NCBI RefSeq assembly: GCF_004010195.1
Contig: NC_057719.1
Coordinates: 47,798,901 to 47,818,900, forward strand
Source: Chiloscyllium plagiosum
Lineage: Eukaryota
Reading direction: 5' to 3'
Length of the DNA stretch: 20,000 nucleotides
The notes below the pieces were generated by a model. That model was not told where the DNA came from. It did no database searches and worked only from the letters and a program-made list of their open reading frames with translations. Position numbers and translations under genes: made by a program. This document shows positions 1,185 through 20,000 of the stretch, in pieces; the stretch's first letter is position 1, and the number at the start of each line of letters is the position of its first letter.

Positions 1185-1334
1185 GTTCTGATTCTTGGTG
1201 AACCAAACCAATACAAGTTGGCTGCAAACAATCAACATTTGTTGGAGTTCAAACGTCGTTACAAAACTTTGCAAGATGTTACAAAGGTTTCCACCTACGG
1301 TGAAATTGATCTACATGCAATGTTAATGATATAA
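1185..1334 (+). CDS. lgals3: Terminal coding exon of a galectin, most like galectin-3 (C-terminal part of the carbohydrate-recognition domain)
   Basis: Acceptor ttactttcattttctccag|GTT at 1184/1185. Phase-0 translation VLILGEPNQYKLAANNQHLLEFKRRYKTLQDVTKVSTYGEIDLHAMLMI* is colinear with the galectin-3 C-terminus as recalled ([51 protein letters not shown]). Upstream exons lie outside the window; paralog identity is uncertain. Confidence 0.82.
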   Translation, partial: VLILGEPNQYKLAANNQHLLEFKRRYKTLQDVTKVSTYGEIDLHAMLMI

Positions 1335-1622: not shown

Positions 1623-1823
1623 ATGGCTTGCTTTTCCTGCTTCTTGCTTGTTTTATTACTCTTTAATACTCCCCCTTCTCAGACAATATCTAATTGCTTT
1701 CAAAATGACTCAAAGTTTTCTTCATGATTGAGGAAGTCACATTTCACACAGTACTTTTTTTTCCAATCCCTAATTTTCTTGTGTTTGTATTTGACCCTGT
1801 CTGCTCAAGTAATTCAACAGAGA

Positions 1824-2004
1824 CAAAAAAAAACTGTAGATGCTGGAATCCAAAATAGACAGGCAAGCGGCTGGAAGAACACAGAAAGGCAGGCAACATC
1901 AGGAGGTGGAGAAGTCAACGTTGGTTACTCCCAAAATGTTGACTTCTCCACCTCCTGATGCTGTCTATCTTTGTGTGTTCTTCCAGCCTCCTGCCTGTCT
2001 ATCT
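1824..2004. mobile_element. Fold-back pair of PLE terminal-repeat fragments (~68 bp inverted arms)
   Basis: 1855-1922 (atagacaggc...aggaggtggagaagtcaacgtt) is the reverse complement of 1935-2002 (aatgttgacttctccacctcctgatg...gcctgtctat). The same family recurs at 13733-13848. Confidence 0.8.
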
Positions 2005-2280
2005 TAATAATTCATCAACCAATACAACCAATTTGTTTTTACATATCTTTATTGTTAACCCTATAAGACTGTGAACACCTTTTATTAGGCCATTTCATAA
2101 GCTTCTCAACTACAAGGTGTAAAATGCTAAATTCTCAAGAATTATATCTTCATAATTGGAATTGAAACCTAGCATCATTTCAGTGAATTTATGTTGCATA
2201 TCTTCCCTTATTCCCATTTCTTTATATCTTTGCAACTATACACGGTACACCACCTACAGCTTATATATTTATTCATCCAA

Positions 2281-2735: not shown

Positions 2736-3294
2736 CTGGGCCAATACTGTGATTTAAAATTGAGGAATTGATTATGTGTGTAATTTGACCAAACTTTATA
2801 TTTACTGATGCAATAAATAAAACTGAACAAATTATTTTGTGTGTATGTGTTAGAACCTTTGTAGGAGGATTACACTGTCACTGTAATCTCATGATTGCAT
2901 GGGTCACATTACAAAACAAAAATACTTTATCAAATAATCAAGCTGACCAATGAAATATCTTCTCTGGTTTTAAACAATAAAATCTATTAACCAAATTTCT
3001 TAAACATAATTATTTGTAATAAACCAAACGGAAGTTGTTTAATGAAGGTACAATAATTGGGTAATGTACATAGTTTGTAATACAGTAATTGAAATACATT
3101 TCCCTTCTAAATATTTCCAAAATACAAACAAACCACACACTTTTCAAGGGAAAAAACGTTTTTCCACAGAGACCGGCCCATGTGTTTTTCAGTAAAGCCA
3201 ATGGTTTATCGTCCTTGAAGACAAAAGGATAAAGCAGAGAATATTACAGATCCTGTTGCTGTGATGTTTTGACATATGGCAAAATCACTAATTA

Positions 3295-3385
3295 TGCACT
3301 GAGCTCAACAAGGCTGGTAGTATCTGTGACAAGAGAAAGAAAGTTAATGCTTCAAATCCATAAGACTCAGCTTTATAGCTGAGAA
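3295..3385 (-). mobile_element. Old, degenerate PLE terminal-repeat fragment
   Basis: gagctcaacaaggctggtagtatctgtg...gaaagttaatgcttcaaatcca resembles the reverse complement of the pLTR at 13649-13732. Confidence 0.4.
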
Positions 3386-4843: not shown

Positions 4844-6357
4844 GATATCTGCCACCTCCTTCCAGAAGAGCAGGGAGCCTGCATAACTAGTGCTACTCAA
4901 GACCAGCACAGACCAGAATCTCTTCTTTGGCTCCTCCCAAGAATTTAGATAAGTCCCCAAGGCCAAAGTTACAATGCGAAGTGAGGAATGAGATTGCTGT
5001 GCCTCTGGTGATGATCTTTGCATCCTCACTCTCCACGGGAGTAGTGCTGGATGATGGAGAATGGCAATTGTTCCTCTGTTCAAGAAAGGGGATTAGGGAA
5101 ATCCCTGAGAATTACAGACCAGTCAGTTGTACATCTGTGGTAAGCAAGGTACTGGAAAGGATTCTGAGAGATAGGGTTCATGACTATTTGGAAAAACATA
5201 GTTAATTAAAGGTAGTCAGCATGGTTTTGTGAGGGGCAGGTCATGCCTCACAAGCTTTATCAAGAGACGGGACAAGTTGACGAAGATTGAGCAGTGGATG
5301 TGGTGTATATGGATTTCAGTAAGCGTACTTGATAAGGTCCCCCACAGTAGGCTCATTCAGAAAGTTAGAAGTTATGGGATACAGGAAAATTGGCTGGCCA
5401 AAAGAAGATAGCAAGTGGTAGTGGAAGGAAAGCATTTGCCTGGATGTTGGTGACCAGTGGTATACGCAGTGATCTGTTCTTGAGCCTCTGCTCTTTGTAG
5501 TTTTTATAAATGACTTGGATGAAGAAGTGGAAGGGTGGGTTAGTAAGTTTGCTGATGATGCAAAGGTCGGTGGTGTTGTAGATAGTGTTGAGGGTTGTTG
5601 CAGGCTAAAACAAGACATTAACAGGATGCAGAACTGGGCTGAGAAGTGGTAGATGGAGTTCAACCTGGATAAATGTGAAGTGATTAATTTTGGAAGGTCA
5701 AACTCGAATGCTGAATGCAGGGTTAAAGATAGGTTTCTTCATCGTGTGGAGGAACAGCAGGATCTTGGAGTCCACGTACATAGATGCATCAAAGTTCCCA
5801 CCCACGTCGATAGGGTTGTTAAGAAGGCATATGGTGTTTTGGCTTTCATTAACAGGGGGATTGAGTTTAAGAGCCGCAAGGTTTTGCTGCAGCTCTATAA
5901 AACCTGGTCAGACCACACTTGGAATATTGTTTCCAGTTCTCGTCGCCTCATTACAGGAAGGATGTAGATGCTTTAGAGACGGTGCAGAGGAGATTTACCA
6001 CTATGCTGTCTAGATTGGAGGGCATCCTTATGTAGAGAGGTTGAGTGAGCTAGGGCATTTCACACTGGAGTAAAGAAGGAAGAGAGGTGACTTGATAGAG
6101 GTGTACAAAGTAATGAGAGGCATAGACAGTGTAGATAGCCAGACATTTTTCTCCAATACAGAAATGGCTGTCACAAAGGGTCATAATTTTAAGATGATTG
6201 GAGGAATGTTTAGATGAGATGTCAGAGGTAGGTTTTTTATGCAGAGAGTGTGGCTGCATGGAATACACTGCCAGCGGCGGTGGTAGAGTCAGAGACATTT
6301 AAGCGACTGCTGGTCCAGCACATAGGGGGCAGGAAATTGACAGGTGTGTAGATTAGG

Positions 6358-6483
6358 GGGGAAAGTGAGGACTGCAGATGCTGGAGATCAGAGCTGAAAA
6401 TGTGTTGCTGGAAAAGCGCAGCAGGTCAGGCAGCATCCAAGGAGCAGGAGAATCGACGTTTCGGGCATGAGCCCTTCTTCAGG
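6358..6483 (-). mobile_element. Short non-autonomous PLE pLTR-derived element carrying a hammerhead motif, inserted in the CR1 3' UTR
   Basis: Homologous to 11924-12058 and 14926-15050. Flanked by the imperfect direct repeat caggtgtgtagattagg (6341-6357) / caggtgtgtaggttcgg (6480-6496). Confidence 0.8.
6450..6483 (-). ncRNA. Minimal type-I hammerhead ribozyme motif (intact core, stem I 5' strand lost)
   Basis: Minus strand: C-CUGAAGA-A-GGGC-UCAU-GCCC-GAAAC-GUC-GAUUC. Confidence 0.65.
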
Positions 6484-6632
6484 TGTGTAGGTTCGGTTGA
6501 TTTTAGATAAAGATAAATGCTTAGCACAACATGATGGGCCGAAGAGCCTGTACTGTGCTGTCCTGTTCTATGTAATTTACTGTATGCGGGATTTCAAAAT
6601 ACGCTGTTCACAGATCTGGATGGGATTCTGAA

Positions 6633-6694
6633 TGGAGTGTCAGTGTGGACTCAATGGGCCAAATGGCCTTTTTCCACATTGTAGAAATTCTATG
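6633..6694 (+). mobile_element. Isolated HE1/HER1-type 3' tail fragment
   Basis: gtcagtgtggactcaatgggccaaatggcctttttccacattgtagaaattctatg matches the 3' ends of the SINEs at 10850-10900 and 19250-19300. Confidence 0.6.
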
Positions 6695-7024
6695 AAAAAG
6701 TGCATCTCCCAAATGACTATGCCATATTTGCCAGATTCACTTTATAACTGAAGAGACCACTCAGATTGAGAGAGTCCTTGGATTTTTTTGCTCTGGCTGG
6801 TCAAACCTCCCACAGATTGGGCTCGATGAAGAGACTTTGCAGACAAGTTGTAATGTTTAAACATCCCCTTCCAAATCCATTTTAATTTAGATTCCTCCTC
6901 TCTCCCTCACCTTTGGTTGTCTGCATTGCTCTTAATAGGCTTTGCATGCAAATTAATAAATTGGAAAACATGGGTGACAGTTAATAGATTAAAGGTACTA
7001 TGGGTAGTTTGGTTGTGGGAAAAA

Positions 7025-7309
7025 AGATTTCCTGATGATAAGGGAGTCCAGAACCTGGGGGTCACACTCTAAGGATACAGGTTAGAGAATGATGAACCTG
7101 TGGAATTCTCTGCCGCACAAAGTGGTCGAGGGCAAAACATTGAATGTTTTTAAAAAAAGTTATCTGTATAGTTTTTAGGGCAAAGGGGTTCAAAGGGTAT
7201 GGGAAGTAAATAGAAACAGGGTTGGATGATCAGCCACAATCATTGAATTACAGAGCAGGCTCAAGGAGCTGAATGACTTCTTCCTGATCCTATTTTTGAT
7301 GTTTCTATG
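7025..7309 (+). mobile_element. CR1 LINE 3' fragment (older subfamily)
   Basis: ggagtccagaacctgggggtcacactctaagg (ESRT.GH motif), ctgtggaattctctgccg (LWNSLP) and tail gagcaggctcaaggagctgaatg...tgtttctatg. Confidence 0.7.
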
Positions 7310-7484
7310 TAAGTTGAGAGTTTTCACCCAAATACATGGGCAATGTATTCCAGACACCCACCATCCTCTGGATGAAAACAGTTTTCCTCATAATCCCTCT
7401 CATACCTGCAATTTTCAGCCCTGACATCCTTCTTGTAAATCTCCCTGTTCTCTCTCGGGAACGCCATTATGTGGAGGTACCAGT

Positions 7485-8067
7485 TGTCACAAAGCTGATC
7501 CTTTTCCTCAAAGTTACTGTGTCCTTGATTTTCTACAGAGAGGTCGTAAAACAGCTCAGGCTCTGAAACAGCTAAGTTGGTGCAGAAATGAATGGTTTAT
7601 TGAGGCCCTTTTTGTTCACCCCTAATCAGATGATACCCTAGGCCAAAGGTTTTCATGTTTTAGAAATCTCTTGTGTAATGAAAGGAGAGTGGCCAGTCCA
7701 GACAGCTGAGGCTTTTTGATTCGGTTACAGCAGGGGATGTGTGAAACGAGCTGCTGGACTTCTCTCTCTCCTTGCAAACTGTAAGCCTGTGCCATGTTTT
7801 ACTGTTTATGCTAAGGGATGTCTGAGTTTTCGGAACAACATAATTAATTTGGGTTTGGATAGGGTAAGTTATCGGGTGTTCTATTTTCTGTTCTTTGTGT
7901 CTCATTGCGTAATTTTGCAAATAAATTTTGTTTGTTTAAAACTTGGAGTCGACCCAGCTAGTTTGCACCGGGAATATCAACTTTACACCTAGCTAAACAA
8001 ATAGCAAAGTTACGGTCTGGGCTACCTGCTTAAAGAGGTTTTGAGGGGTCTGGCCTAGTCCATAGCA
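7485..8067 (+). mobile_element. Solo LTR (probably Gypsy-type LTR retrotransposon)
   Basis: 583 bp with TG...CA ends (tgtcac...catagca), a 4 bp flanking duplication cagt/gagt (1 mismatch) and AATAAA at 7920-7925. Removing it rejoins a PLE pLTR (tatgtggaggtaccagt + attggacagggatggacaaag, cf. 10329-10365). Confidence 0.72.
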
Positions 8068-8071
8068 GAGT

Positions 8072-8177
8072 ATTGGACAGGGATGGACAAAGTCAAAAGT
8101 CCCACAACAACACGGTATAGTCCAACAGGTTTATTTGAAATGACAAGCTTTTGGAGTGCAGCCCCTTTGTCAGGTGG
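8072..8177 (-). mobile_element. PLE pLTR with decayed hammerhead motif (continues at 7468-7484 across the LTR)
   Basis: Homologous to 10328-10450 (tccaacaggtttatttg...). Minus strand CAC-CUGACAA-A-GGGGC-UGC-ACUCC-AAAAG-CUU-GUC. Confidence 0.75.
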
Positions 8178-9574
8178 ACAATTATGCCCTTCCTGAATGC
8201 GCTGACTAGACCTGTGCACAATTCCCAGCTGTGGCCTAACCAGTGTCCAGTATAATTCCAGCATTACATCCTTGATTCTGTATTTATTATCTCACTCAAT
8301 GAAGGATAACATTCCATATGCCTTTGTTACCATAATATCTATTTGACCTGCTCACTTCAGGAATCCGTGAATGTACACTCTAGGGTCTCTCAATTCCTCA
8401 ATACCTTCTCAATACTGTCCTAATTATTTGTGCATTCCCCAAATACATAACTTTTCATTTTTCCAGGTTGAGTTCCCACCTTGCCACTTTTCTGTCCACT
8501 CAACCATGCATTGATATAATTCTGCAGCCAACATGCATCCTCTTCACTATCAACTACATACCTAATTTTTGTGTTGTCTATAAATTTCCTAATTATACTT
8601 CCCACATTTACTATATATATATAGCACAAACTGCAAGGCACCAACGCTGTACCCTCTGGTACACACATGCAGGAGAAGACCGAAGACATCAGACTGAAGG
8701 TGTTTGCATTTGAATGCAGGACTCTACTCATCTTCTGTTGAGGTCATTGAATCTCTTTCAACATTTCATACCCAAATTTCTAACTTGTCAATGCAGATAG
8801 TGTCTGGCTTGGTGAATCTTTCCAATGTCTTTTGTTTGCATTTCAGAATTTTAAACATTTACAGATCTTTTGTTGCTTTTTATTAATAAAAGTGTGAATG
8901 TTATGCTTTGAAAATTGAAACTTGAAATTCCAACTTTAATAATATACCAAATAAAAAATAGGAAACCAAAGACATTGGAAGTTTTCAATAAAAACTGATA
9001 ACATTTCATTGTATTATAAATATATAAAGTGTATTTTACAAGAAGGTGAGATGGCTGAAAAACAATCAGGTCAATTTAAAGATACCCACAAGGTGGCGAC
9101 ATTTGCACATGATTTGAAACTACCAGGACATGATTATTGGGCATCTAGTGAGCTGAAATTCAGACAGGGGCAATGATTAACATACAGCAATCGATGCAAT
9201 AAGGTTTCATGGCAAGTTGGATTTCAATGTAACTGCCAGTTAAGTGGCGGGGTGTGGGGTTAGAATTTCGATTGGGGTCTCCCGGGACTGTCAGTCACAG
9301 GCACATTCCTGCTTGTGCTGGCCATAGTCATGGAATAAATCTGGTTACATTCTGAGGAGTGGGCAACAGTCAGTTCTACAAGACCATCACAAGTAGTCAA
9401 GACAATCGTATCTTGTCAATCAGGAAGCTGCAAACATAATGGCCAGGGGTCTGGGCGGTCATGTTTATGGGTTCTTCATCGAAGTCTGCCAGAGATCTAA
9501 GGTAAATACAGTCCTGAGGGTCCATGCATTGAGAAAGATTCAAGGGAGGGGCTATAGGGAAAACTGGGAAATCA

Positions 9575-9693
9575 CTAACAAAAGCAACGAGTAGTCGAGG
9601 CTGTGGGCAGATCAACCATGATCTAATTGAATGACCAAGCAGACTTAATGGGCTGAAAGGTCTGTATATGCTCCCATGTCTGATGGTCTTATG
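9575..9693 (+). mobile_element. CR1 3' tail fragment
   Basis: cagatcaaccatgatctaattgaatg...gcagacttaatgggctgaaaggtctgtatatgctcc resembles the tail at 7225-7309. Confidence 0.55.
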
Positions 9694-10414
9694 GAGAGGG
9701 GAAAGCAGAGTTATGTGTTTAGGTGGGACAAGGGGATGGGCAGAATAGAATTGGAGGAAATCGTGGTCTGTAGGAGGAATGAGTTATTGACAGTGACCAC
9801 CGTGGCCTCCACTGGAGGAGTGCAGAGGACAAGAATGGGCATCATTAAGGTATAAAGTCTGGGTTCAAGGGCAGGGAGAACAGTTGGAGGCAATCTCCAA
9901 AGTGGTGGGTCTCCAGGTGAGGGAGTGAGTTGTAAAAGGTTGTAGGATGGTGTGAGGTAAAAGGATTGAAGGAGGTTCTGGCAGTGGGAGTGGGAGAAGG
10001 GCAGTGAGGGGTAGAGGTGGGGTGGTTGGGAACTGGTTGGTGACCAGGTAGGGCCTGTGCTGGCATACCCAACATGAGCTGTGATGTGAAATCCAACCAG
10101 AAAATAGTTGGGACAATGCCCAGGGTGGACAGAGTCACTGTCACTTTGATGAATGAAAGCACAGGATCCATGTCTGCTGGATGTTGGGTTATTGAAAGGG
10201 TAAAGACTTAAAACAGCAATATGCAAACTGCAAGTAATTTATAATCCAAGAATTTCTTTGCCCATTTGCACTGCATGCAGTATTAATGTGCTTTAGTGAT
10301 TTGTGTCATGCCATTGGTCTTTGCAATGATGTGGAGGGGCCGGTGTTGGACTGGGGTGGGCAAAATTAAAAATCGCACAACACCAGGTGATATTCCAACA
10401 GGTTTATTTGGAAG

Positions 10415-10450
10415 TACTAGCTTTCAGAGTGCTGCTCCTTCATCAGGTAG
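10415..10450 (-). ncRNA. Minimal type-I hammerhead ribozyme motif (best preserved overall)
   Basis: Minus strand: UAC-CUGAUGA-A-GGAGC-AGC-ACUCU-GAAAG-CUA-GUA. Stem I is UAC/GUA, stem II has 4 pairs including one G-U, and stem III is the palindrome AGCU. Confidence 0.65.
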
Positions 10451-10609
10451 CTGTGGAGCAAGATCATAAGACACAGAATTTATAGTAAAAGGTCATAGTG
10501 TCATGTAATGATACGATATATTACCCCAGTGCAACACCGGCACCTCCACATCATGGCTACCATCGACACCATGAACTGCTGGCTGAAAGTGGAGAGAATC
10601 TCCAAGAAG

Positions 10610-10907
10610 GGGCAGCACGATGGCACACTGCTGCTTCACAGCGCCTGAGACCCGGGTTCAATTCCCGCCTCAGGTGACTGTCTTGTGTGGAGTTTGCACA
10701 TTCTCCCCGTGTCTGTGTGGGTTTTCTCTGGGTGCTCCAGTTTCCTCCCACAGTCCAAAAACGTGCAGGTTAGGTGAATTGGCTATGCTAAATTGCACGT
10801 AGTGTTAGGTGAAGGGGTAAATGTAGGGGAATGGGTGGGTTGCGCTTCGGCAGTTAGTGTGGACTTGTTGGGCCGAAGAGCCTATTTCCACACTGTAAGT
10901 AATCTAA
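10610..10907 (+). mobile_element. HE1-type tRNA-derived SINE
   Basis: gggcagcacg start, B box gggttcaattccc, central tggagtttgcacattctccccgtgtctg (V-domain like), CR1-like 3' tail ending aatctaa. The A box is partly deleted. Confidence 0.9.
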
Positions 10908-11078
10908 AAAGATCACGCATAATGACAGACATTAAGTTTCTGCAGAAATGCAAGAAAGCAGGAATGATCCCAAAAGGATTACAGATCACAAACCCTCTCA
11001 AGCCAATACATCGTATCAGTTGCATGACACTGGGATCTTTTGCTATAAATTCTATGTTTTATGATCCTGGTCCACAAC

Positions 11079-11113
11079 CACCTGACGAAGGAGCAGTGCT
11101 CTGAAAGCTATTA
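11079..11113 (+). ncRNA. Minimal type-I hammerhead ribozyme motif (core intact, stem I disrupted)
   Basis: CAC-CUGACGA-A-GGAGC-AGU-GCUCU-GAAAG-CUA-UUA. Confidence 0.6.
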
Positions 11114-11869
11114 CTTTCAAATAAACCTGTTGGACAAAAACCTGGTGCTGTGTGAATTTTAAAATTGGATTTTGCAAGTGTAACATGGGCATCTCAATGA
11201 AATAAAAGTTAGTAGCAATGTCTTCAAATGAGACGAATGGTGTCAAAAGTTGTAAAGTTGTAGGACGAGGGGACCATCGCTTCATCATGTCTCATGTAAG
11301 TATTATGATGAACTGTGCTGAGTTCAATGAAAAGTTGAATAATTGAGGTTGGTCTGTGATGAGAAGGGGTGCACCCCATTATTGATGCTGATTATTCAGC
11401 TGTTACAGCACCTTCAGAGTTGGTGCACATGCTGTGACCAGGATGGTGGTGGAGCAGATAACAGACCTCCTGAATATATGGCTGTGCTGCTTTAACCGGT
11501 TTAAGGAGATGGTACCTTCAGTATAGCTTGGACAGAGTACGCTGCATCATCCTGAAGTGTTGTGTTCCGTACAACTGGAGCAGGCAATGAGGTGATGTGG
11601 TAAATGCAATGGAAGTGGGACTTTGGGAACAGTTTTCCGAGAAAAACGACATGGGCATTTGGGAGGAGGAAGCTCTCCTTGTGCATGACAGAGCTCAGCT
11701 GTGTCAGGCTCCAGCTGACAGAGTAGACCTTACTGGCACTCGGTTCTCATCCAATAGACAAGAGCTGGATATGCAGATCATCATACATGTAAATAATGTA
11801 AAATAGTCATTAGTCATGATGCCAGCATTGCATTGTGTATGTGGAATCTCTATTTGTTTTAGAGACTTG

Positions 11870-12453
11870 AACATGTAACAACTGCCCATTTACTTCCTCT
11901 CCCCTTGTTATCCAAGGGCCCCCTTACATTCCTGTTGAAGGGCTTGGGCCTGAAACATCGATTCTACTGATCCTCGGACACTGCCTGACCTGCTGTGCTT
12001 TTCCAGCACCACACTTTTCGACTCTGAATTCCAGCATCTGCAGTCCCCACTTTATCCCAAACATATCTTCCAGGTGAAGCAATGCTTTACCTGTACTTCA
12101 CTGCATCCCTGCTCATAATGTGGTCTCCTCTACATTGGGGAAACAAAGCATAGATTGGGTGACTGCTTCGCAGAACATCTACATTCTGTCCACAAAAAAG
12201 ACCCTGAACTTCCAGTTGCCTGCCACTTCAACACACCACTTTGTTCCCCAGCCAAGATCCCTGTATCTGGCTTGCTGCGGTGCTCCAGAGAAGCTCAGTG
12301 CAAGCTAAAAGAACATCACCTCATTTTCTGTTTGGGAACTGTAAAGCCTTCTGGACTCAATATCGAGTTCAACAATTTTAGGATTTCAGGCACTTCTCCT
12401 ATGTCCTTATCCCAACCCTCACACACACCAGGCCTTATTATCACATGGTTTGC
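11870..12453 (+). mobile_element. Penelope-like element, C-terminal GIY-YIG endonuclease remnant (interrupted at 11924-12058)
   Basis: CPFTSSPLVIQGP|KHIFQVKQCFTCTS..CIPCS*CGLLYIGETKHRLGDCFAEHLHSV...PVACHFN...LIFCLGTVKPSGLNIEF. The YIGET, EH, HF and GLN motifs are those of PLE GIY-YIG domains. Confidence 0.88.
11924..12058 (+). mobile_element. Short PLE pLTR-derived element with mutated hammerhead
   Basis: attcctgttgaagggcttgggcctgaaacatcgattc...ccagcatctgcagtccccacttt is the reverse-complement homologue of 6358-6483. Confidence 0.78.
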
Positions 12454-13420
12454 ATTTTTTGTCATTTATATAAATGATTTGGATGTGAACATAGGATGTA
12501 TGGTTAGTAAGTTTGCAGATGACACCAAAATTGGTACTACAGTGGACAGCCAAGGAGGTTACCTCAGAGTACCATAGGACCTTGATCAAGTGGGCCGATG
12601 GAGTTTAATTTATATCAATGTGAGGAGCTACATTTTGGTAAGGCAAATCAAGGCAGGTCCTATACACTTAATGGTAAGGTCCGAGGGAGTGTTGCCGATG
12701 AAAGATACCTTGGAATGCATCATAGTTTCTTGAAAATGGAGTTTCGCGTACACAGGGTAGTGACAAAGGCATTTGGAATGCTTGCTTTTATTGGCCAATA
12801 CATTGAGTATAGGAGTTGAAAGGTCATGTTGTAAGGGGCATTGGTTAGGCCACTTTTTGAATATTGCATTCAATTCTGGTATCCCTGCTATAGGAAAGAT
12901 GTTGAGAGTCTTGGAAGGGTTCAGAAATGGTCTACAAGGATGTTGTCAGGGTTGAAGGATTTGACCTTATAGCGAGAGGCTGAATAGGCTGGAGCTTTTT
13001 TCCCTGGAGCATCGGAGGCTGAGGGGTAACCTTATAGAGGTTTTTAAGATGATGAGGGGCATGGATAGGGTGATCTTTTCACCCTAGTCAAAATCTTTTC
13101 ACATGGGTAGGGGAGTCAAAAAGGTAAGAGGGGAAAGTTTTAAAAAGGACCGAAGGAATAACTTTTTCACGCAGAGAGTGCTGCGAGTATGGAATGAGCT
13201 GCCAGAGGAAGTGGTGGAGGCTGGTACAATTACAATATTTAAACAACATCTGGATGGTACATGAATAGGAAAGGTTTAGAGGGATATGAGGAAAATGTTG
13301 AAAAATGGGACTAGCTTAATTTAGGATATCTGGTTGGCATTAACGAGTTGGACCAAAGAGTCTGTTTCTGTGCTGTACATCTCTATAATTCTATGCTATA
13401 CTATACTATGCTATGCTATA
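12454..13420 (+). mobile_element. CR1 LINE (HER1-like), 5'-truncated, inserted into the PLE
   Basis: FVIYINDLDVN...SKFADDTKIG and MEFN. Same family as 135-1135. The tail ctctataattctatg is followed by (CTATR)n. Confidence 0.9.
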
Positions 13421-13459
13421 CAAAAACTTCCAGCTCGGCGAACAGAACCACAGCATTCT

Positions 13460-13868
13460 ATGCTATTACACACAACCCATTGTTAGCCACTAATTATCTC
13501 CATTCGTAGCTATTCATTCTCCAAGGCCAATTATTATCCACTGCTTTCTCTGTTCAATTGTTCTTCTCTCTCTTTGGGTTCTATCACCATCTATCAGTTA
13601 TACCTTACCCCTTCCCCTCACCCTATCTTCTGTTTCTTAGCTACCATCAGTTTTGAGGAAGGGTCACTGGACATGAAACATTAACTCTGATTTCTCTGCA
13701 CAACTACTGCCAGACCTGCTGAGCTTTTTCAGAAACAAAACAATTACAGATACTGGAATCCAAAGTAGACAAACAGGGGGCTGGAAGAACACAGCAAGCC
13801 AGGCACCATCAGGAGGTGGAGAAGTCAATATTTCAAATATAAACCTTCCCAGCAATTTCTGTGTTTGC
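13460..13868 (+). mobile_element. 3' UTR/pLTR continuation of the PLE at 11870-12453, with decayed hammerhead
   Basis: 13649-13686 reads AGUU-UUGAGGA-A-GGGUC-ACUG-GACAU-GAAAC-AUU-AACU (stem I AGUU/AACU). It is followed by ctgccagacctgctgagctttt...ccagcaatttctg, split by the insert at 13733-13848. Confidence 0.7.
13733..13848 (-). mobile_element. Short PLE pLTR-derived element (same family as 1824-2004)
   Basis: tactggaatccaaagtagac...ggctggaagaacacagcaagccaggcaccatcaggaggtggagaagtcaa aligns to 1841-1918. Confidence 0.78.
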
Positions 13869-14559
13869 TATTGCCGACTGTGAATAAAAACTCATGTTTG
13901 AATTTCTTGTTGGAGTGTCATGTTCCCCAACTTGACAATGAAAAGATGCAGATATTCAGTAAGTATTGTGCACAGAGTAGCAATAACTAGGAGAGTGTGG
14001 TTTAAATGGAATGCAGCTAAGGACAGATAAACCATGTGACATGGTTGTTAAAAAGCAACCAGTTGAGAGAACAGGATTTTATGTGAGAGGGAGTGTCAGC
14101 CATATTTGCTATGTATCATGAGCACTGTGATATTGTGGCTGCTGTGCCATTACATTGCAAGTAAAAATCAAGGCTGGAGTGCCAATACTTGTCTCCACGC
14201 AGCCTTTCAAAGATGGTGTGGGTGAGAGAAATGTCAACCTTTCAATGGATATCTGCTAAGTGACGCATTGTTCTAGGAACCGCACAGAGTAAGGTGTGGC
14301 TAGAATTGCATGAGAGGCACACTATAGGACCAGGGCAAGTAATTAGTGAGGTAAGTTTGTTAAGATACAGCAACAGATCTTACAGTGAAGCCCTGCAAGA
14401 AACATAATACAACTGACACTTAGCCAAAAACAAATGTACAATTCAGCCCAATGTTTCTACTCCTAAAATCCAGGATCCCATATACCCAATTAACTACTTA
14501 GTAACCTGCTCTGTCATCTTTAGAAATTTGTGTGCAACCACTTCCTGATCTCACTCTTT

Positions 14560-14900
14560 TTTTCAGCTGCTCTAAAACTGATATCTCATATTTTCTCTCC
14601 ACATTATTCTTATCAAATAGTGGCAACTTATTTTTCTGTAATGAATTTCATCAAGCATTTGTCAGCTCAGTCCACTAGCCTGTTTATTATTCTCGAAGTT
14701 TATTGCTATTTTCCTCACTGTTTACAGTGCTACCAAGTTACTTGTTAGCTGGAAATTCCGAAGTCCTACTGCTATTCAGAAGGCTAAGTCCAAGAAATCT
14801 GTAATAAAAATAGCAGTGACCTTCATCCCTTGGAATTCCACAATTCCTCCAATCCAAAAAACCGATGCTCCTCATTTATCCATTCTTGTTTCTAAACACT
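14560..14900 (-). mobile_element. Very old CR1/L2-like RT remnant
   Basis: Weak similarity to the antisense FADD/QGS region (ccaagttacttgttagctggaaatt...ccttggaattccac). Confidence 0.3.
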
Positions 14901-14925
14901 AATTGGCCATCAATGTTAAACTTTC

Positions 14926-15202
14926 AGAAAATGAGGACTGCACGTACTGGAGATCAGAAACAAAATGTGTGGTGCTGGAAAAAGCACAGCAATCAAGCAG
15001 CATCCAAGGAGCAGGAGAGTCGACGCTTCAGGCATAAGCCCTTCATCGGTTTGATCTGGGATCAGGTTGGGGGGGGGAGGGAGATGAGGAAACTGGTAAA
15101 ACTGACATTGATGCAATGTTGGAGGGTCCCCAGGCAGGTGAGGCATTCTTCCTCCGGACATCAGGTGGCTTGGATTTGGTGGTGGTGGAGGCCCAGGACT
15201 TT
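14926..15202 (-). mobile_element. PLE fragment: GIY-YIG C-terminal remnant and pLTR with decayed hammerhead
   Basis: Minus strand VLGLHHHQIQAT*CPEEECLTCLGTLQHCINVSFTSF parallels 12262-12380. 15016-15050 minus reads CCGAUGA-A-GGGC-UUAU-GCCU-GAAGC-GUC. Confidence 0.78.
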
Positions 15203-15618
15203 TATCGCACTCACTATCTGAATGGATTCTGTTCATTTCGAGTTTTTTCTCGTCGCTCGTCGACATAAAAGACACCCCTATCTAGCTAACCACAGCCAGA
15301 TGATGTTAAGGGAATGGAAATATTCACTGTAAAGCAGAGACCAAGTGAGGATTGAGCTAGGATTATTCAACTGACAGGTTAGTTACCTCCTTAGCTCATC
15401 ACCTGTTGTGTTGGCAAGTGCAGTTTTAATTCTATCCACCCTAACGACCCTCCACCATTACTGTGAGCTAAAAAACAAAAATCCTTTATTACTAAAATTA
15501 TTATAAAATTTAAAATTCTAAAATAAGTTAAAATTCTACCTAAAATTAACATTACTTAAACAATCAATTTAAAAATTAATTCAATTATGTCCAAAATAGA
15601 GAAGCTTAAAAGAGTCCA

Positions 15619-16200
15619 TTATGAATCCAAAGAAATTCTTAGCAACTCAAGGGTCAGGGATATAACCAGGTTTGTAATGTGTTGAGCAAATGTCTTACAC
15701 TTTTCGATCCAGAGATCTTTCATCACGTCAGTGTTCTTTTGAACCATTTACCTCGGGACAAATCCATAAAAAGAAACATTGGTTCCTTTAATAGAATCCA
15801 TGATTTCTTTCTCTAAATGTTTATATTTCTCCACCTTCTCCTCCCAAGCTTGCTCTAGCGAATTTTCTTGGTTTTCCACCGAATTGTGACATCAACAACA
15901 ATAATATGACTGTCTTTCTTAAATCTAATATCTGGGATCCAGAGCTTTACATATCCTTTATATGAGGTTCAATATATGTGGTCCATCCTTTAGTTTTAAC
16001 ATATTTAACATATTTAATTAGTTCCTCAGCAATCCTGTTGTGTCTTTTCATGTGCATATTTTTCACATACGGGCACCAGCCCGATGTGCGCGCGACTGTC
16101 TTGATGGCATCATTGCATCCCCTACAATTCTTGGTGTTAAAGGGCCTTCCATATGATAACGATGATCTAGTTGGGTACAAGTTTGTTCGTATTTTTACTT
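15619..16200 (-). pseudogene. R2 ORF C-terminus: CCHC zinc knuckle and PD-(D/E)xK restriction-like endonuclease (frameshifted)
   Basis: ORF 15947..16180 YPTRSSL...CRGCNDAIKTVARTSGWCP...KRHNRIAEEL...EPHIKD. After frameshifts: LWIPDIRFKKDSHIIVVDVTIR, LEQAWEEKVEKYKHLEKE, GKWFKKN and LLRISLDS*. Confidence 0.85.
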
Positions 16201-16783
16201 TTCATGTTTTCATATAATGCATCTTATTTAACCAATTATTAGAGATTTTATCATTTTTAAAATAGTGAATGCCTGCCCCCTTGCTAGGCAGAGCCATCCA
16301 TTTTTGCAATTCCACATTTCTCCATTTCGAATAATTTTTACTGCAATCCTCTTCAATCCCCTCGATATCCTCATTCTCACCATCTTCACTTTTCCTTCTA
16401 ATTGGCTATTACAGAATGGATTCCAAATTTCGTCAAAATTTTCAAAGTGCTCAATTCCTTCATCTTCGTTGTTACACTAATCCCATCGAATTTAAATGAG
16501 GCATGAAGGATTTCGTCAGAAGAGGTAAGCAGCAATTCATTTTTCCTTAATACCGCAATCGGAATAGCATTGATAGCTTATTCAAACCGAGGCTGCTGTC
16601 GCAGCTCCGGGCATATAACATCCCATCTGCAACTGATTGTGGGGGGTGCAAAATTTCTTTCACTGACCCTTTAATTAAACAATCTAATTTATTTAAATAA
16701 TTCTGTGATACTTCAGATAATAATAAATCCTAGGGATAAAATAGGATTTTAATAATTCTATATTCTGCACTGGATTTAATAGT

Positions 16784-17096
16784 GGGCAGCACGGTGGCAC
16801 AGTGGGTTAGCACTGCTGCCTCACAGCACCAGAGTCACAGGTTCAATTCCCGCCTCAGGTGACTGACTGCGTGGAGTTTGCACATTCTCCCAGTGTCTGC
16901 GTGGATTTCCTCCGGGTGCTCCGGTTTCCTCCCACAGTCCAAAGATGTGCAGGTTAGGTGAATTGGCCACGCTAAATTGCCTGTAGTGGGGTAAATGTAG
17001 GGGAATGGGGCTGGGTGGGTTGCGCTCCGGTGGGTCGGCGTGGACTTGTTGGGCCGAAGGGCCTGTTTCCACACTAAGTAATCTAATCTAATCTAA
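16784..17096 (+). mobile_element. HE1-type tRNA-derived SINE inserted in R2
   Basis: A box tggcacagtgg, B box ggttcaattccc, V-like core and (TAATC)n tail. Probable TSD taatag. Confidence 0.92.
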
Positions 17097-17277
17097 TAGC
17101 GAACTCCAAGTTCTTGATCCATTCTCCTAATTGATCTTCCCAGTGTAATAAACTAATTCCAACCCCGGGATCTATTCTTGCTCCTAAATATTTTTCCACA
17201 TTCCCCGGCTCTATATACTGAATATCCTTTTTATTAAGTTTACAATTGGCCCTATTGTTGTCGATAAACATTTTATT

Positions 17278-18076
17278 CAGAGTCATAGAGATGTACAGCA
17301 TGGAAATAGACCCTTCAATCCAACCCGTCCATGCCGACCAGATATCCCAATCCAATCTAATCCCACCTGCCAGCATCCAGCCCATATCCCTCCAAACCCT
17401 TCCTATTCAAATACCCATCCAAATGCCTCTTAAATGTTGCAATTGTACCAGCCTTCACCACACCCTCTGGCAGCTCATTCCATACACGTACCACCCTCTG
17501 CGTGAAAAAGTTGTCCCTTATGTCTCTTTTATATCTATCCCCTCTCACCCTAAACCTATGCCCTCTAGTTCTGGACTCCCCGACCCCAGGGAAAAGACTT
17601 TGTCTATTTATCCAATCCATGCCCCTCATCATTTTGTAAATCTCTATAAGGTCACCCCTCAGCATCCGACGCTTCAGGGAAAACAGCCTCAGCCTGTTCA
17701 GCCTCTCCCTGTAGCTCAGATCCTACAACCCTGGCAACATCCTTGTAAATCTGTTCTGAACCCTTTCAAGTTTCAGAACATCTTTCCAATAGGAAGGAGA
17801 CCAGAATTGCATGCGAATTAAACTCCATCTGCCACTTCTCAGCCCATTGGCTCATCTGGTTCAGATTCTGTTGTAATCGGAGGTAACCCTCTTCGCTGTC
17901 CACTACACCTCCAATTTTGGTGTCATCTGCAAACTTACTAACTGTACCTCTTGTGCTCGCATCCAAATCATTTATGTAAATGACAAAAAGTAGAGGGCCA
18001 GCACCGATCCTTGTGGCACTCCACTGGTCACAGGCCTCCAGTCTGAAAAACAACCCTCCACCACCACCTTCTGTCT
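17278..18076 (-). mobile_element. CR1 LINE (HER1-like) inserted in the R2 RT, with an internal deletion near 17815
   Basis: Closely similar to 135-670 over 17278-17814. It then jumps to MEFN and SKFADDTKIGG (ORF 17766..18110). Confidence 0.92.
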
Positions 18077-19003
18077 TTTCTAATGTTAACCTCCAACCCC
18101 GTACTTTCACAAAATTGCTGTACTAGTTTTAAATTGTATTCTATGCCCTCGTAAGATTGACTTACTAAATCAATATCATGTGCAAAGGTGAGGGAGGCAC
18201 AGTGAAAATCATCACCCCTGGGACTCAAAAAATCCCTCTTTTACCCTCTTCTAACATAGTGACGACAGGGTCCATTACAATGTTAAAAAGAATAGGGGAT
18301 AAAGAGTCGTCTTGTTTGACTCCTTTTAAACTTTTTATCAAATTTGTCTTACAATTAAAACCTTCCACTAACGTATTATCATAATATAAATTTGCTATTA
18401 ATTTAATGAATTCTGGTGGAGCAATAATCTGTTCATGGCTTTAATAATCAGTTTATGACCCACTGTGTCAAAGGCCTTTGCCAGGTCCACGAACACTATC
18501 ACTAGTTGCTGCTTTTTCTTTTGGCCCCATCGATAATGTTTGTGAGGATTTTAATATTCTCCTCACAGCCTGTGACCCCAGTGAGAAAATCTTTTTGACG
18601 TTTATTTAACCTTTTAGCAATGATTTTAGTAAATAGCAGTAATAAAATAGGGCCTATTGTTATTGGTCTCCAATTTTCAATATCTTTTAGTTCTTCTTCA
18701 TCATTAGTTTTCAGAATTAGTACTGCCCTGCTCGTTTTCAGTGAATCTGGGATATTGCCAGTTTTTAGCCAAATTGAAAAAATTCTTGGGATTAAAGTAT
18801 TGTCTTTATTGAATATTTTAATTATATCTTTCACTGACATCTCATCAGGTCCTGCAGCAGATTTAACGTCAGTCACCTTAATGGCCTGAATGATGCCTTC
18901 TACTGTTATTGGCCCAATTAACATATTACTTAAGGAATTGTCTAGTCCACCCTTATATTTCACAAAAGTTCTTAAATTACACTTTTCAGTTGCAACTATT
19001 AGT
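18077..19003 (-). pseudogene. R2 reverse transcriptase domains 0-5 (frameshifted, catalytic FADD changed to FAHD)
   Basis: ORFs 18502..19203 (non-SINE part) and 18028..18228, plus intervening frames VDLAKAFDTVGH and GVKQDDSLSPILFNIVMDP. Confidence 0.88.
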
Positions 19004-19310
19004 GGGCAGCACGGTGGCACAGTGGTTAGCACTGTTGCCTCACAGCGCCAGAGACCCGGGTTCAATTCCCGACTCAGGCGACTGACTGTGTGGAGTTTGC
19101 ACATTCTCCCCGTGTCTGCGTGGGTTTCCTCCGGGTGCTCCGGTTTCCTCCCACAGTCCAAAGATGTGCAGGTCAGGTGAATTGGCCATGCTAAATTGCC
19201 CATAGTGTTAGGTTAAAAGGGGTAAATGTGGGGGTATGGGTGGGTTGCGGGTCGGTGTGGACTTGTTGGGCCGAAGGGCCTGTTTCCACACTGTAAGTAA
19301 TCTAATCTAA
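19004..19310 (+). mobile_element. HE1-type tRNA-derived SINE inserted in R2
   Basis: gggcagcacggtggcacagtggttagc (A box), gggttcaattccc (B box), V-like core and tail gtaatctaatctaa. Confidence 0.93.
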
Positions 19311-19484
19311 TTTACCACTAAAATATTATTCTAAATCTTCTTTAGTCAACGGACAAATACATTTCGTTAGAGCCCCCATTAATGATCTAGCAAGATATTG
19401 CCTTTTAAATTTATACATCATTTGCATTTCTTTAAATTGATCTTTTTTCCTACAGTATTTCTTTCTTGCATTACTTAAAAATGC

Positions 19485-20000
19485 TCAATTTTAGCCTTCT
19501 CAAAATTGATGGCTTTTGATGCCCGTCATATAATTATAGGGGGAGACTTTAATTGTATTATGGATCCGGAAATAGACAGGATTCCCAAGAGTACTGCAGG
19601 AGTATCTCCCAGATCTAGACAATTGATGGATCTGAACAAAGAATTAGGATTAGTAGATGTATGATGTCTTCATCCACAGGGTAGAGATTTCTCTTTCTAC
19701 TCTAATCCACATAAATGTCAAACCAGAATTGATATGTTTTTTGCCCCCTCAATTTTTTAAAATTCCATATCATCCTGTAAAATAGGTAATATAGCAATTT
19801 CTGACCACCCTGCTGTATATATGGAAACTAAGGCGAGGAACAGTGGGACATCCCCTCGGCATTGGCGTATGGACCCCTTCCTAATGAAAGATAGTAAATT
19901 TGTAAAGTACTTCTCTCAAGAATTTAAAACTTTTTTAGAAATTAATTCAGGTACAGCTAGCAACCCGTCAATGATGTGGGAGACCAGCAAAGCTTACACG
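19485..20000 (+). mobile_element. L1-clade LINE ORF2, AP-endonuclease C-terminal half (degenerate, runs off the window)
   Basis: GDFNCIMDPEIDR, LGLVDV*, RDFSFYSNPHKCQTRIDMFF, AISDHPAV, WRMDPFLMKD and MWETSKAY are L1 EN/linker motifs. Confidence 0.85.

Follow-up and report, generated by a model that had tools for sequence, protein, structure and literature searches.

Why should one stretch of shark DNA hold seven hammerhead ribozyme motifs, and does their grouping mean anything for the place where they lie? The question is raised by 20,000 nucleotides of Chiloscyllium plagiosum (NCBI RefSeq assembly GCF_004010195.1, contig NC_057719.1, positions 47,798,901 to 47,818,900 of the forward strand; the whole stretch is here called the window), in which an initial annotation had seen a cluster of minimal hammerheads carried by the pseudo-long terminal repeats (pLTRs) of several families of Penelope-like elements (PLEs). 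We find the motifs to be genuine, to belong to a known class and to be nothing unusual for this locus. They are probably independent and mostly decayed pLTR insertions of Neptune-type PLEs, for the most part pieces of 95-130 nt that would have been reverse-transcribed from the 5′ end of uncleaved RNA. What we add is a boundary at which the 5′ ends of copies pile up, a pairing of one long with one short arm in head-to-head copies, and a poly(A) site inside the pLTR of one family.

All seven motifs were found where they had been placed, each with the extra A after the CUGANGA box. With C3 of the core as the origin of our numbering, the predicted cut falls just before +28 in family A and +29 in family B, two of the families into which a profile search sorted the motifs (A at 6450, 11928 and 15016; B at 8141, 10415 and 11079; C at 13649). 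The whole core is kept in three copies, at 6450, 10415 and 11079, and stem I is kept as well only in 10415-10450(-), which is complete with a stem I of 3 bp and is the sole one among the 7 to pass our full descriptor of a minimal hammerhead ribozyme (min-HHR), i.e. core boxes, stem II with G10.1-C11.1, an extra base after A9, palindromic 15.2/16.2, NUH and an open stem I. Stem I of 6450-6483(-), whose core is intact, is cut to 1 bp because the insertion begins at -1, and 11079-11113(+) has an intact core and a broken pair 2.1:1.1. In the remaining four the core is altered, with several of the changes lying at CpG sites: G8>A and G12>A in 8141-8177(-), A6>U and G16.2>A in 11928-11963(+), C3>U and G16.2>A in 13649-13686(+), and U4>C and A15.1>G in 15016-15050(-).

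The bare hammerhead pattern does not exceed chance in the window (4 matches vs. a shuffle mean of 2.0, with 36 of 200 shuffles reaching 4), an Rfam scan of the window returned no hammerhead family match, and none of five monomer-plus-tail pieces folded better than its shuffles (z -1.0 to +0.3). A relaxed scan of the window with stem II required gave 5 matches against a mean of 0.7 and a maximum of 3 in 60 shuffles, and the full descriptor gave 41 matches in a spaced genome sample of 778 kb and 0 in each of 10 shuffles, by which we reject the reading of the motifs as chance. To place the window in its genome we drew 140 systematically spaced 10-kb stretches in two sets, which held 264 family ends in 778,308 nt and 209 in 581,819 nt, together 473 in 1.36 Mb. 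The mean density is 6.96 ends per 20 kb, or about one every 3 kb, which extrapolates to about 1.2 million ends genome-wide, so that the annotation was right in calling ribozyme-bearing families dense in this genome; descriptor-complete motifs extrapolate to about 180,000 (131,000-247,000) and family B, with 95 ends in the sample, to roughly 240,000 ends. The same counts do not support a cluster. The window has 12 family matches by profile search, including pieces beyond the seven motifs, and 12 ends per 20 kb are reached in 8% of draws of two random 10-kb stretches; the number is ordinary for the genome and the local grouping is therefore background density.

Families A, B and C are each linked to PLE coding sequence, which supports the assignment of minimal type-I hammerheads to the pLTRs of several PLE families. 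The hammerheads of A and C lie about 100-330 nt behind GIY-YIG frames, and the pLTR of family B stands directly before the open reading frame (ORF) in five sampled stretches (L166, L195, L196, L198, L199) and after it in another (L209), so that the partial-tandem layout, with a pLTR before and after the ORF, is found for family B; window 10523-11004 also shows a pLTR leading into an ORF. RVT_1 was matched in 3/3 reverse transcriptase (RT) frames tested (E 4e-9 to 2e-7). Family B carries RT and a YIGET motif in single frames of 474-517 aa (L203, L205), family C runs from the C-terminal part of the RT to the endonuclease (EN) within a single frame (L173), where PF01541 matched at E 8e-4, short of its curated cut-off, and the coding partner of family A is seen as linker and EN only (L184). 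The endonuclease of family B alone had no Pfam match, and Pfam on five genome frames yielded one sub-threshold GIY-YIG match and two weak unrelated ones; the twelve longest frames examined all contain runs of N, so no complete protein was read. Among named relatives, shark proteins come nearest, with identities of up to 91%, and PF00078 occurs together with PF01541 in relatives further away. The elements thus have one ORF with RT followed by a C-terminal GIY-YIG domain, and their copies may bear a 30-40-nt tail at one end and an inverted, 5′-truncated copy placed head-to-head, all of which marks the EN+ PLEs; one-ended tails and head-to-head copies of PLEs have been described (PMC8557442, PMC3846280). 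A CX4CxxC linker between RT and EN occurs in frames of A, B and C, and a CX2-5CxxC linker is given for Neptune and Nematis (PMC8557442), which suggests that these are Neptune-type PLEs. The sample also held a family E (L124:5692-5735, L015:50-173), in which the extra base is U, stem II is longer and contains a mismatch, and the tail differs, and a subfamily C2 (L175:5648-5688, L102:4820-4860), in which the core pair U3-A8 replaces C3-G8 and stem I is its own.

Where the copies begin was determined for 221 of 232 A copies and 94 of 95 B copies, those alignable to long natural references. In family A, 114 of the 221 begin at -15..+10, with 36 at -4 or -3, and the stop rate is 0.077 per nt in this interval vs. 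0.0025 upstream, a 30-fold rise seen in the first sample that recurred in the second; 51 of 94 B copies begin in the same interval. Short solo A copies have a pyrimidine share of 0.46 upstream of the boundary (n=35), long copies one of 0.78 (n=27); the flank of the short copies thus differs from the pyrimidine-rich 3′ UTR, and a missing subfamily reference does not account for the boundary. Most copies run across the cut site (188/221 in A, 84/94 in B), and their templates were therefore uncut or re-ligated.

The 3′ ends are bimodal, about 35 nt apart, near +89 and +125 in family A and +85 and +123 in family B. Among 469 random copies we counted 81 head-to-head pairs, 0 tail-to-tail pairs and 8 direct neighbours within 400 nt, and 72 of the 81 pairs join one long arm to one short arm (p 1e-13). 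None of the 8 loose direct neighbours is a clean tandem unit, and with so few of them against 81 head-to-head pairs we rejected arrays of retrozymes as a reading of these copies, although arrays may exist in other parts of the genome. One-long-one-short pairs match the two reverse-transcription start sites and the priming on both strands known from PAc, the Poseidon element of Anolis carolinensis (Frangieh et al. 2024; PMC11167929). In PAc the two internal start sites lie about 35 nt apart and bound the tail downstream of the hammerhead, both target strands are extended and uncleaved RNA is the main substrate, all of which fits the shark copies; its hammerhead is protein-assisted and dispensable for insertion in vitro, and no RNA-seq ends are recorded at its cut site (PMC11167929). 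The ORF of PAc starts inside stem II, whereas the ATG of shark family B lies at the second reverse-transcription start site (+121..+123), and the CX4CxxC linker of the shark families is a further difference. The main text on PAc mentions neither a transcription start site nor a poly(A) site (PMC11167929).

We propose that RNA polymerase II would start at the initiator-like A that lies four bases before C3 and is the first base of stem I, and that the element protein would nick both target strands and begin reverse transcription internally at about +89 and +125, as has been shown in vitro for PAc (PMC11167929). The cDNA would run off the 5′ end of the RNA and be joined to the target or to a second cDNA, giving solo or head-to-head inserts with a whole ribozyme. 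With a start site added at -4, the dominant short class would thus be explained as run-off cDNA. Cleavage by the ribozyme would be slow and would require a dimer or assistance from protein, and selection would keep the ribozyme in the master elements; the genomic copies would decay and have no role at this locus.

Reads of a poly(A) single-cell run bear on this scheme. On a long A copy, read depth falls from 482 to 139 across -4, with 107 loose ends there, and the 90% likeness filter also lowers depth upstream of -4. Depth is level across the cut site, where cut 3′ pieces would be too short to detect, and uncut polyadenylated RNAs therefore exist. At a junction of family B pLTR and ORF, 804 of 2,929 reads carry poly(A), 358 at +57 and 446 at +60, i.e. 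12-15 nt behind ATTAAA and at no genomic A-run, and AATAAA or ATTAAA is kept at this place in 56/73 B copies. In stretch L196 the pLTR of family B works as a poly(A) site in this run (positions 374-394), and B inserts may serve as portable poly(A) sites that supply many host 3′ ends. Since the B poly(A) site precedes the reverse-transcription start sites, long copies need read-through, a jump or a circle.

A tentative extension, which we think possible and no better than that, would read the pLTR as a retroviral-like U3-R-U5, with R from the first base of the ribozyme to the poly(A) site and U5 with the two reverse-transcription starts. Polyadenylated RNA would then be primable only near its 5′ end, the short inserts would be ‘strong-stop’ cDNAs, about a million of them abortive products of uncut RNA, a few +28 ends would come from cut RNA, and long, partial-tandem copies would need a hammerhead cut and ligation or an end-to-end jump. 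If true, the layout would give the PLE hammerhead a defined job and would explain how pLTRs are regenerated, both of which are stated as open questions in the literature (PMC2377424, PMC8557442, PMC11167929). A shark genome with about a million PLE ends is a record of where reverse transcription starts and stops, and the 5′ boundary, the one-long-one-short rule and the B poly(A) site make both questions directly testable.

Covariation, on which the initial annotation had let its claim depend, is found: pair counts reveal compensatory changes both in stem I and in the core, where C3-G8 becomes U3-A8. Base pairs were counted by anchored parsing, a MAFFT alignment of 14 hammerheads having shifted family B by one column. 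Between families, with a parse that requires pairing, 2.1:1.1 is C:G, U:A or A:U, 2.2:1.2 is U:A, A:U or C:G, and 15.2:16.2 is C:G or G:C. Within families and with no pairing filter, 2.3/1.3 of family B is C:G in 43 copies, U:A in 13, U:G in 10 and other in 2 (n=68); in family C (n=21) the core pair 3/8 is C:G in 14, U:A in 5 and U:G in 2, and 2.2/1.2 is U:A in 12, C:G in 6 and other in 3. In non-CpG core columns, 2.9% of A copies and 4.2% of B copies have a letter other than the commonest one, as compared with tail medians near 6%, and among copies that span the region 98/157 in A and 32/59 in B show no change in any of the 11 core letters. From the compensatory changes we infer that the master lineages are likely to have been selected for the fold; the core figures would fit selection in the masters with neutral decay of the genomic copies.

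In the window, the same families form a nested set of insertions, listed here by position.

1810..2008, both strands (1810-1922 minus, 1907-2008 plus): family D head-to-head pair, hammerheads clipped; 71-bp inverted repeat
3230..3360, minus strand: old family C remnant (profile search, E 1.7e-7)
6355..6483, minus strand: family A short insert, from -1, with core (C3 = 6482), predicted cut at 6455/6454 and long tail
8069..8178, minus strand: family B short insert with decayed core (G8>A, G12>A) and AATAAA behind the ribozyme
10320..10508, minus strand: family B long-tail arm of a head-to-head composite, holding the complete hammerhead 10415-10450 (inverted-repeat and profile search)
10523..11004, plus strand: family B tail end, then ORF start (ATG 10553; ‘FLQKCKKAG’ frame after 10908)
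11020..11167, plus strand: direct arm of the family B composite: end of the 3′ untranslated region (UTR), hammerhead 11079-11113 with broken stem I, short tail
11921..12058, plus strand: family A short insert with decayed core, inside a family C coding remnant; flanks join as in L032
12059..12455, plus strand: GIY-YIG endonuclease remnant and 3′ UTR start of a 5′-truncated family C element; 150 scored matches
13418..13456, plus strand: family E tail fragment without hammerhead; matches L015 173-208, directly behind the E hammerhead
13457..13722, plus strand: family C 3′ UTR remainder, decayed hammerhead 13649-13686 and tail
13720..13848, minus strand: family D insert, hammerhead clipped and decayed (profile search)
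14926..15050, minus strand: family A short insert with decayed core (U4>C, A15.1>G)

Both family D pieces, the family C remnant at 3230-3360(-), the B tail at 10523-10561 and the E tail at 13418-13456 were absent from the initial annotation. The insert at 6355..6483 has 44 matches in a search of its own genome and lies in a host repeat that we take to be a long interspersed element (LINE). It is flanked by a clear 14-nt target-site duplication (6341-6354 / 6480-6493, 13/14 identical); many more were noted by eye in a query-biased set of copies. Block 10320-11167 is a head-to-head family B composite with an ORF start, whose N-terminus also sits behind a B pLTR in L166; the ORF start is interrupted at about 10607-10907 by what is presumably a short interspersed element (SINE). 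The decayed GIY-YIG remnant at 12059..12455 had no Pfam match of its own, and its family C element is split at about 12456-13395, presumably by a LINE. PLE ends are here nested in or beside PLE remnants (11878-12455 and 13418-13848; A inside C, with E and D adjoining the 3′ end of C), which may reflect an insertion preference. Rfam miRNA matches at 1855-2002, with scores far below gathering, correspond to the inverted pair of family D.

The short copies could also have come from masters of their own, short non-autonomous elements akin to SINEs, or from a structural stop of reverse transcription or fold-back of the cDNA at stem I, and we consider this unlikely. A 130-nt piece with a putative initiator, a ribozyme and both reverse-transcription start sites could well be re-mobilised, non-autonomous PLE derivatives have been reported (PMC8557442; bioRxiv 10.64898/2026.07.22.740005), and several head-to-head junctions join -4..-6 to +28 via stem-I complementarity. 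However, short and long copies share ribozyme types, the validation copies match long references at a median identity of 92%, and the 5′ ends are scattered across about 25 nt, as is typical of fresh truncations, where one master should give one fixed end; a structural stop would be expected 3′ of the fold (+16..+33) and not past it. Still harder to uphold, and in our view very improbable, is the model of Cervera and De la Pena (2014), in which cleaved and ligated unit circles are the chief template; short copies would then be random early truncations on circles. Selection on the hammerhead core would suit circles, as would the B poly(A) site upstream of the reverse-transcription starts and the 13 of 221 A ends at +28..+32 (2.9 expected, p 1e-5), but this excess is weak evidence of cleavage because 6 of these ends lie at head-to-head junctions that show stem-I microhomology, it is absent in family B (2 ends at the cut site vs. 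2.3 expected), and CpG decay can shift alignment starts. With circles, moreover, the excess of stops at -4 over background would be left unexplained, no clean tandem unit was seen, and linkage between sites is 0.26 across the cut site and 0.26 downstream, with no drop, no recombination signal and therefore no support for circles.

Least credible, and rejected by us as next to impossible, is a functional cluster of self-cleaving ribozymes acting jointly, as dimers, on a local transcript. The window does contain same-strand copies of the same family (A at 6450 and 15016, B at 8141 and 10415), one of them complete, but the density is ordinary, one partner of each pair has core changes, and the copies are separate insertions, each with junctions of its own, in different nested repeats. 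For 4/4 natural intact copies, the computed energy of the strand-swapped active dimer is 3.7-10.4 kcal/mol above that of the best dimer fold, in agreement with the low activity reported in PMC4209133. Dimer cleavage of minimal hammerheads has been described (Lunse et al., cited via PMC6765202); at this locus it is unlikely, because all but one of the seven copies are single inserts, decayed or clipped, that lack a tandem partner.

Independent insertions run off uncleaved RNA are thus the account we favour, and several points weigh against it. The 5′ ends of family B are spread over -13..+4 and not sharp, and those of family C map unreliably because subfamilies are mixed. The base at -4 is the A of TCATTC in family A and of TCAGTT in family C, which by eye fits the initiator consensus. 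An extra G, as a cap would leave, was seen in 17/29 copies in one count (p 2e-4) and in 9/18 in random samples (p 0.024), and an alignment-based control gave 6/17 vs. 38/147 (p 0.29), with head-to-head partners as a confounder; we regard a cap-derived G as not established. Of 73 solo A copies, only 8 showed a target-site duplication (control 1%). The RNA data are a single run, from a library unsuited to native 5′ ends, in which no read ends were listed at the cut site or the start site; run X20 gave 0 aligned reads, and 88-94% of the aligned reads continue into unlike sequence and are therefore likely to be host read-through transcripts. A poly(A) hexamer is rare in the other families (A 16/197, C 1/86, D 0/10, E 0/3). 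At 2.3:1.3, 57 of 76 A copies, those of the commonest subfamily, have an unpaired U.U, the compensatory changes are a handful of lineage events, each counted many times, and the Neptune clade would follow from a linker motif shared with Nematis.

Min-HHRs in Penelope ends were described in 2014 with their motif, extra base, palindrome, U3-A8 variant and opposite-strand pairs, and have been reported for Neptune and Poseidon elements of fishes (PMC4209133). The shark motifs are alike in being of type I with no real helix III, palindromic 15.2/16.2, an unpaired base between 9 and 10.1, G10.1-C11.1 and the U3-A8 variant, and in occurring as many families per genome, mostly as single truncated copies and in opposite-strand pairs (PMC4209133). 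Their number differs, the about 180,000 complete motifs of the shark standing against about 4,000 in coelacanth and about 9,000 in Xenopus, counted with a different descriptor (PMC4209133). The Penelope of Drosophila virilis similarly has an internal TATA-less promoter with an initiator in its pLTR and a partial tandem (Schostak et al. 2008; PMC2377424), but its start lies 46 nt before a 75-nt intron that ends at helix I (PMC2377424, PMC4209133), whereas the start we propose for the shark elements would be at helix I itself. Non-LTR retrozymes are, like the shark copies, short, non-coding and PLE-derived with a type-I hammerhead, yet are defined by tandem arrays where the shark copies are solo or head-to-head (bioRxiv 10.64898/2026.07.22.740005). 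In the literature we found no account of 5′ ends piling up at the edge of the ribozyme nor of a poly(A) site between ribozyme and reverse-transcription starts, though subscription papers, Repbase entries and supplements may hold one.

Beyond the PLE pieces, positions 1185-1334(+) are likely the last coding exon of a galectin gene, with an AG acceptor at 1183-1184, 49 codons and then a stop, and a Pfam match to Gal-bind_lectin (E 2e-5). Four further regions (139-1132, 4990-6560, 12456-13395 and 17279-18060) are presumably 3′ fragments of LINEs, CR1/L2-like and in both orientations, of which one frame tried against Pfam gave no match. An AT-rich decayed element at about 15280-19000(-), which we take to resemble a non-LTR element of another clade, has an RT-like frame at 18502-19212 (‘WRPITIGP’) with no Pfam match, and Pfam on four window frames gave 0/4 matches; a second frame resembling an RT element lies at 19761-20000(+). 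A SINE-like repeat of ~300 nt, presumably a tRNA-derived shark SINE, is present in three copies, at 10607-10907, 16781-17097 and 19001-19311.

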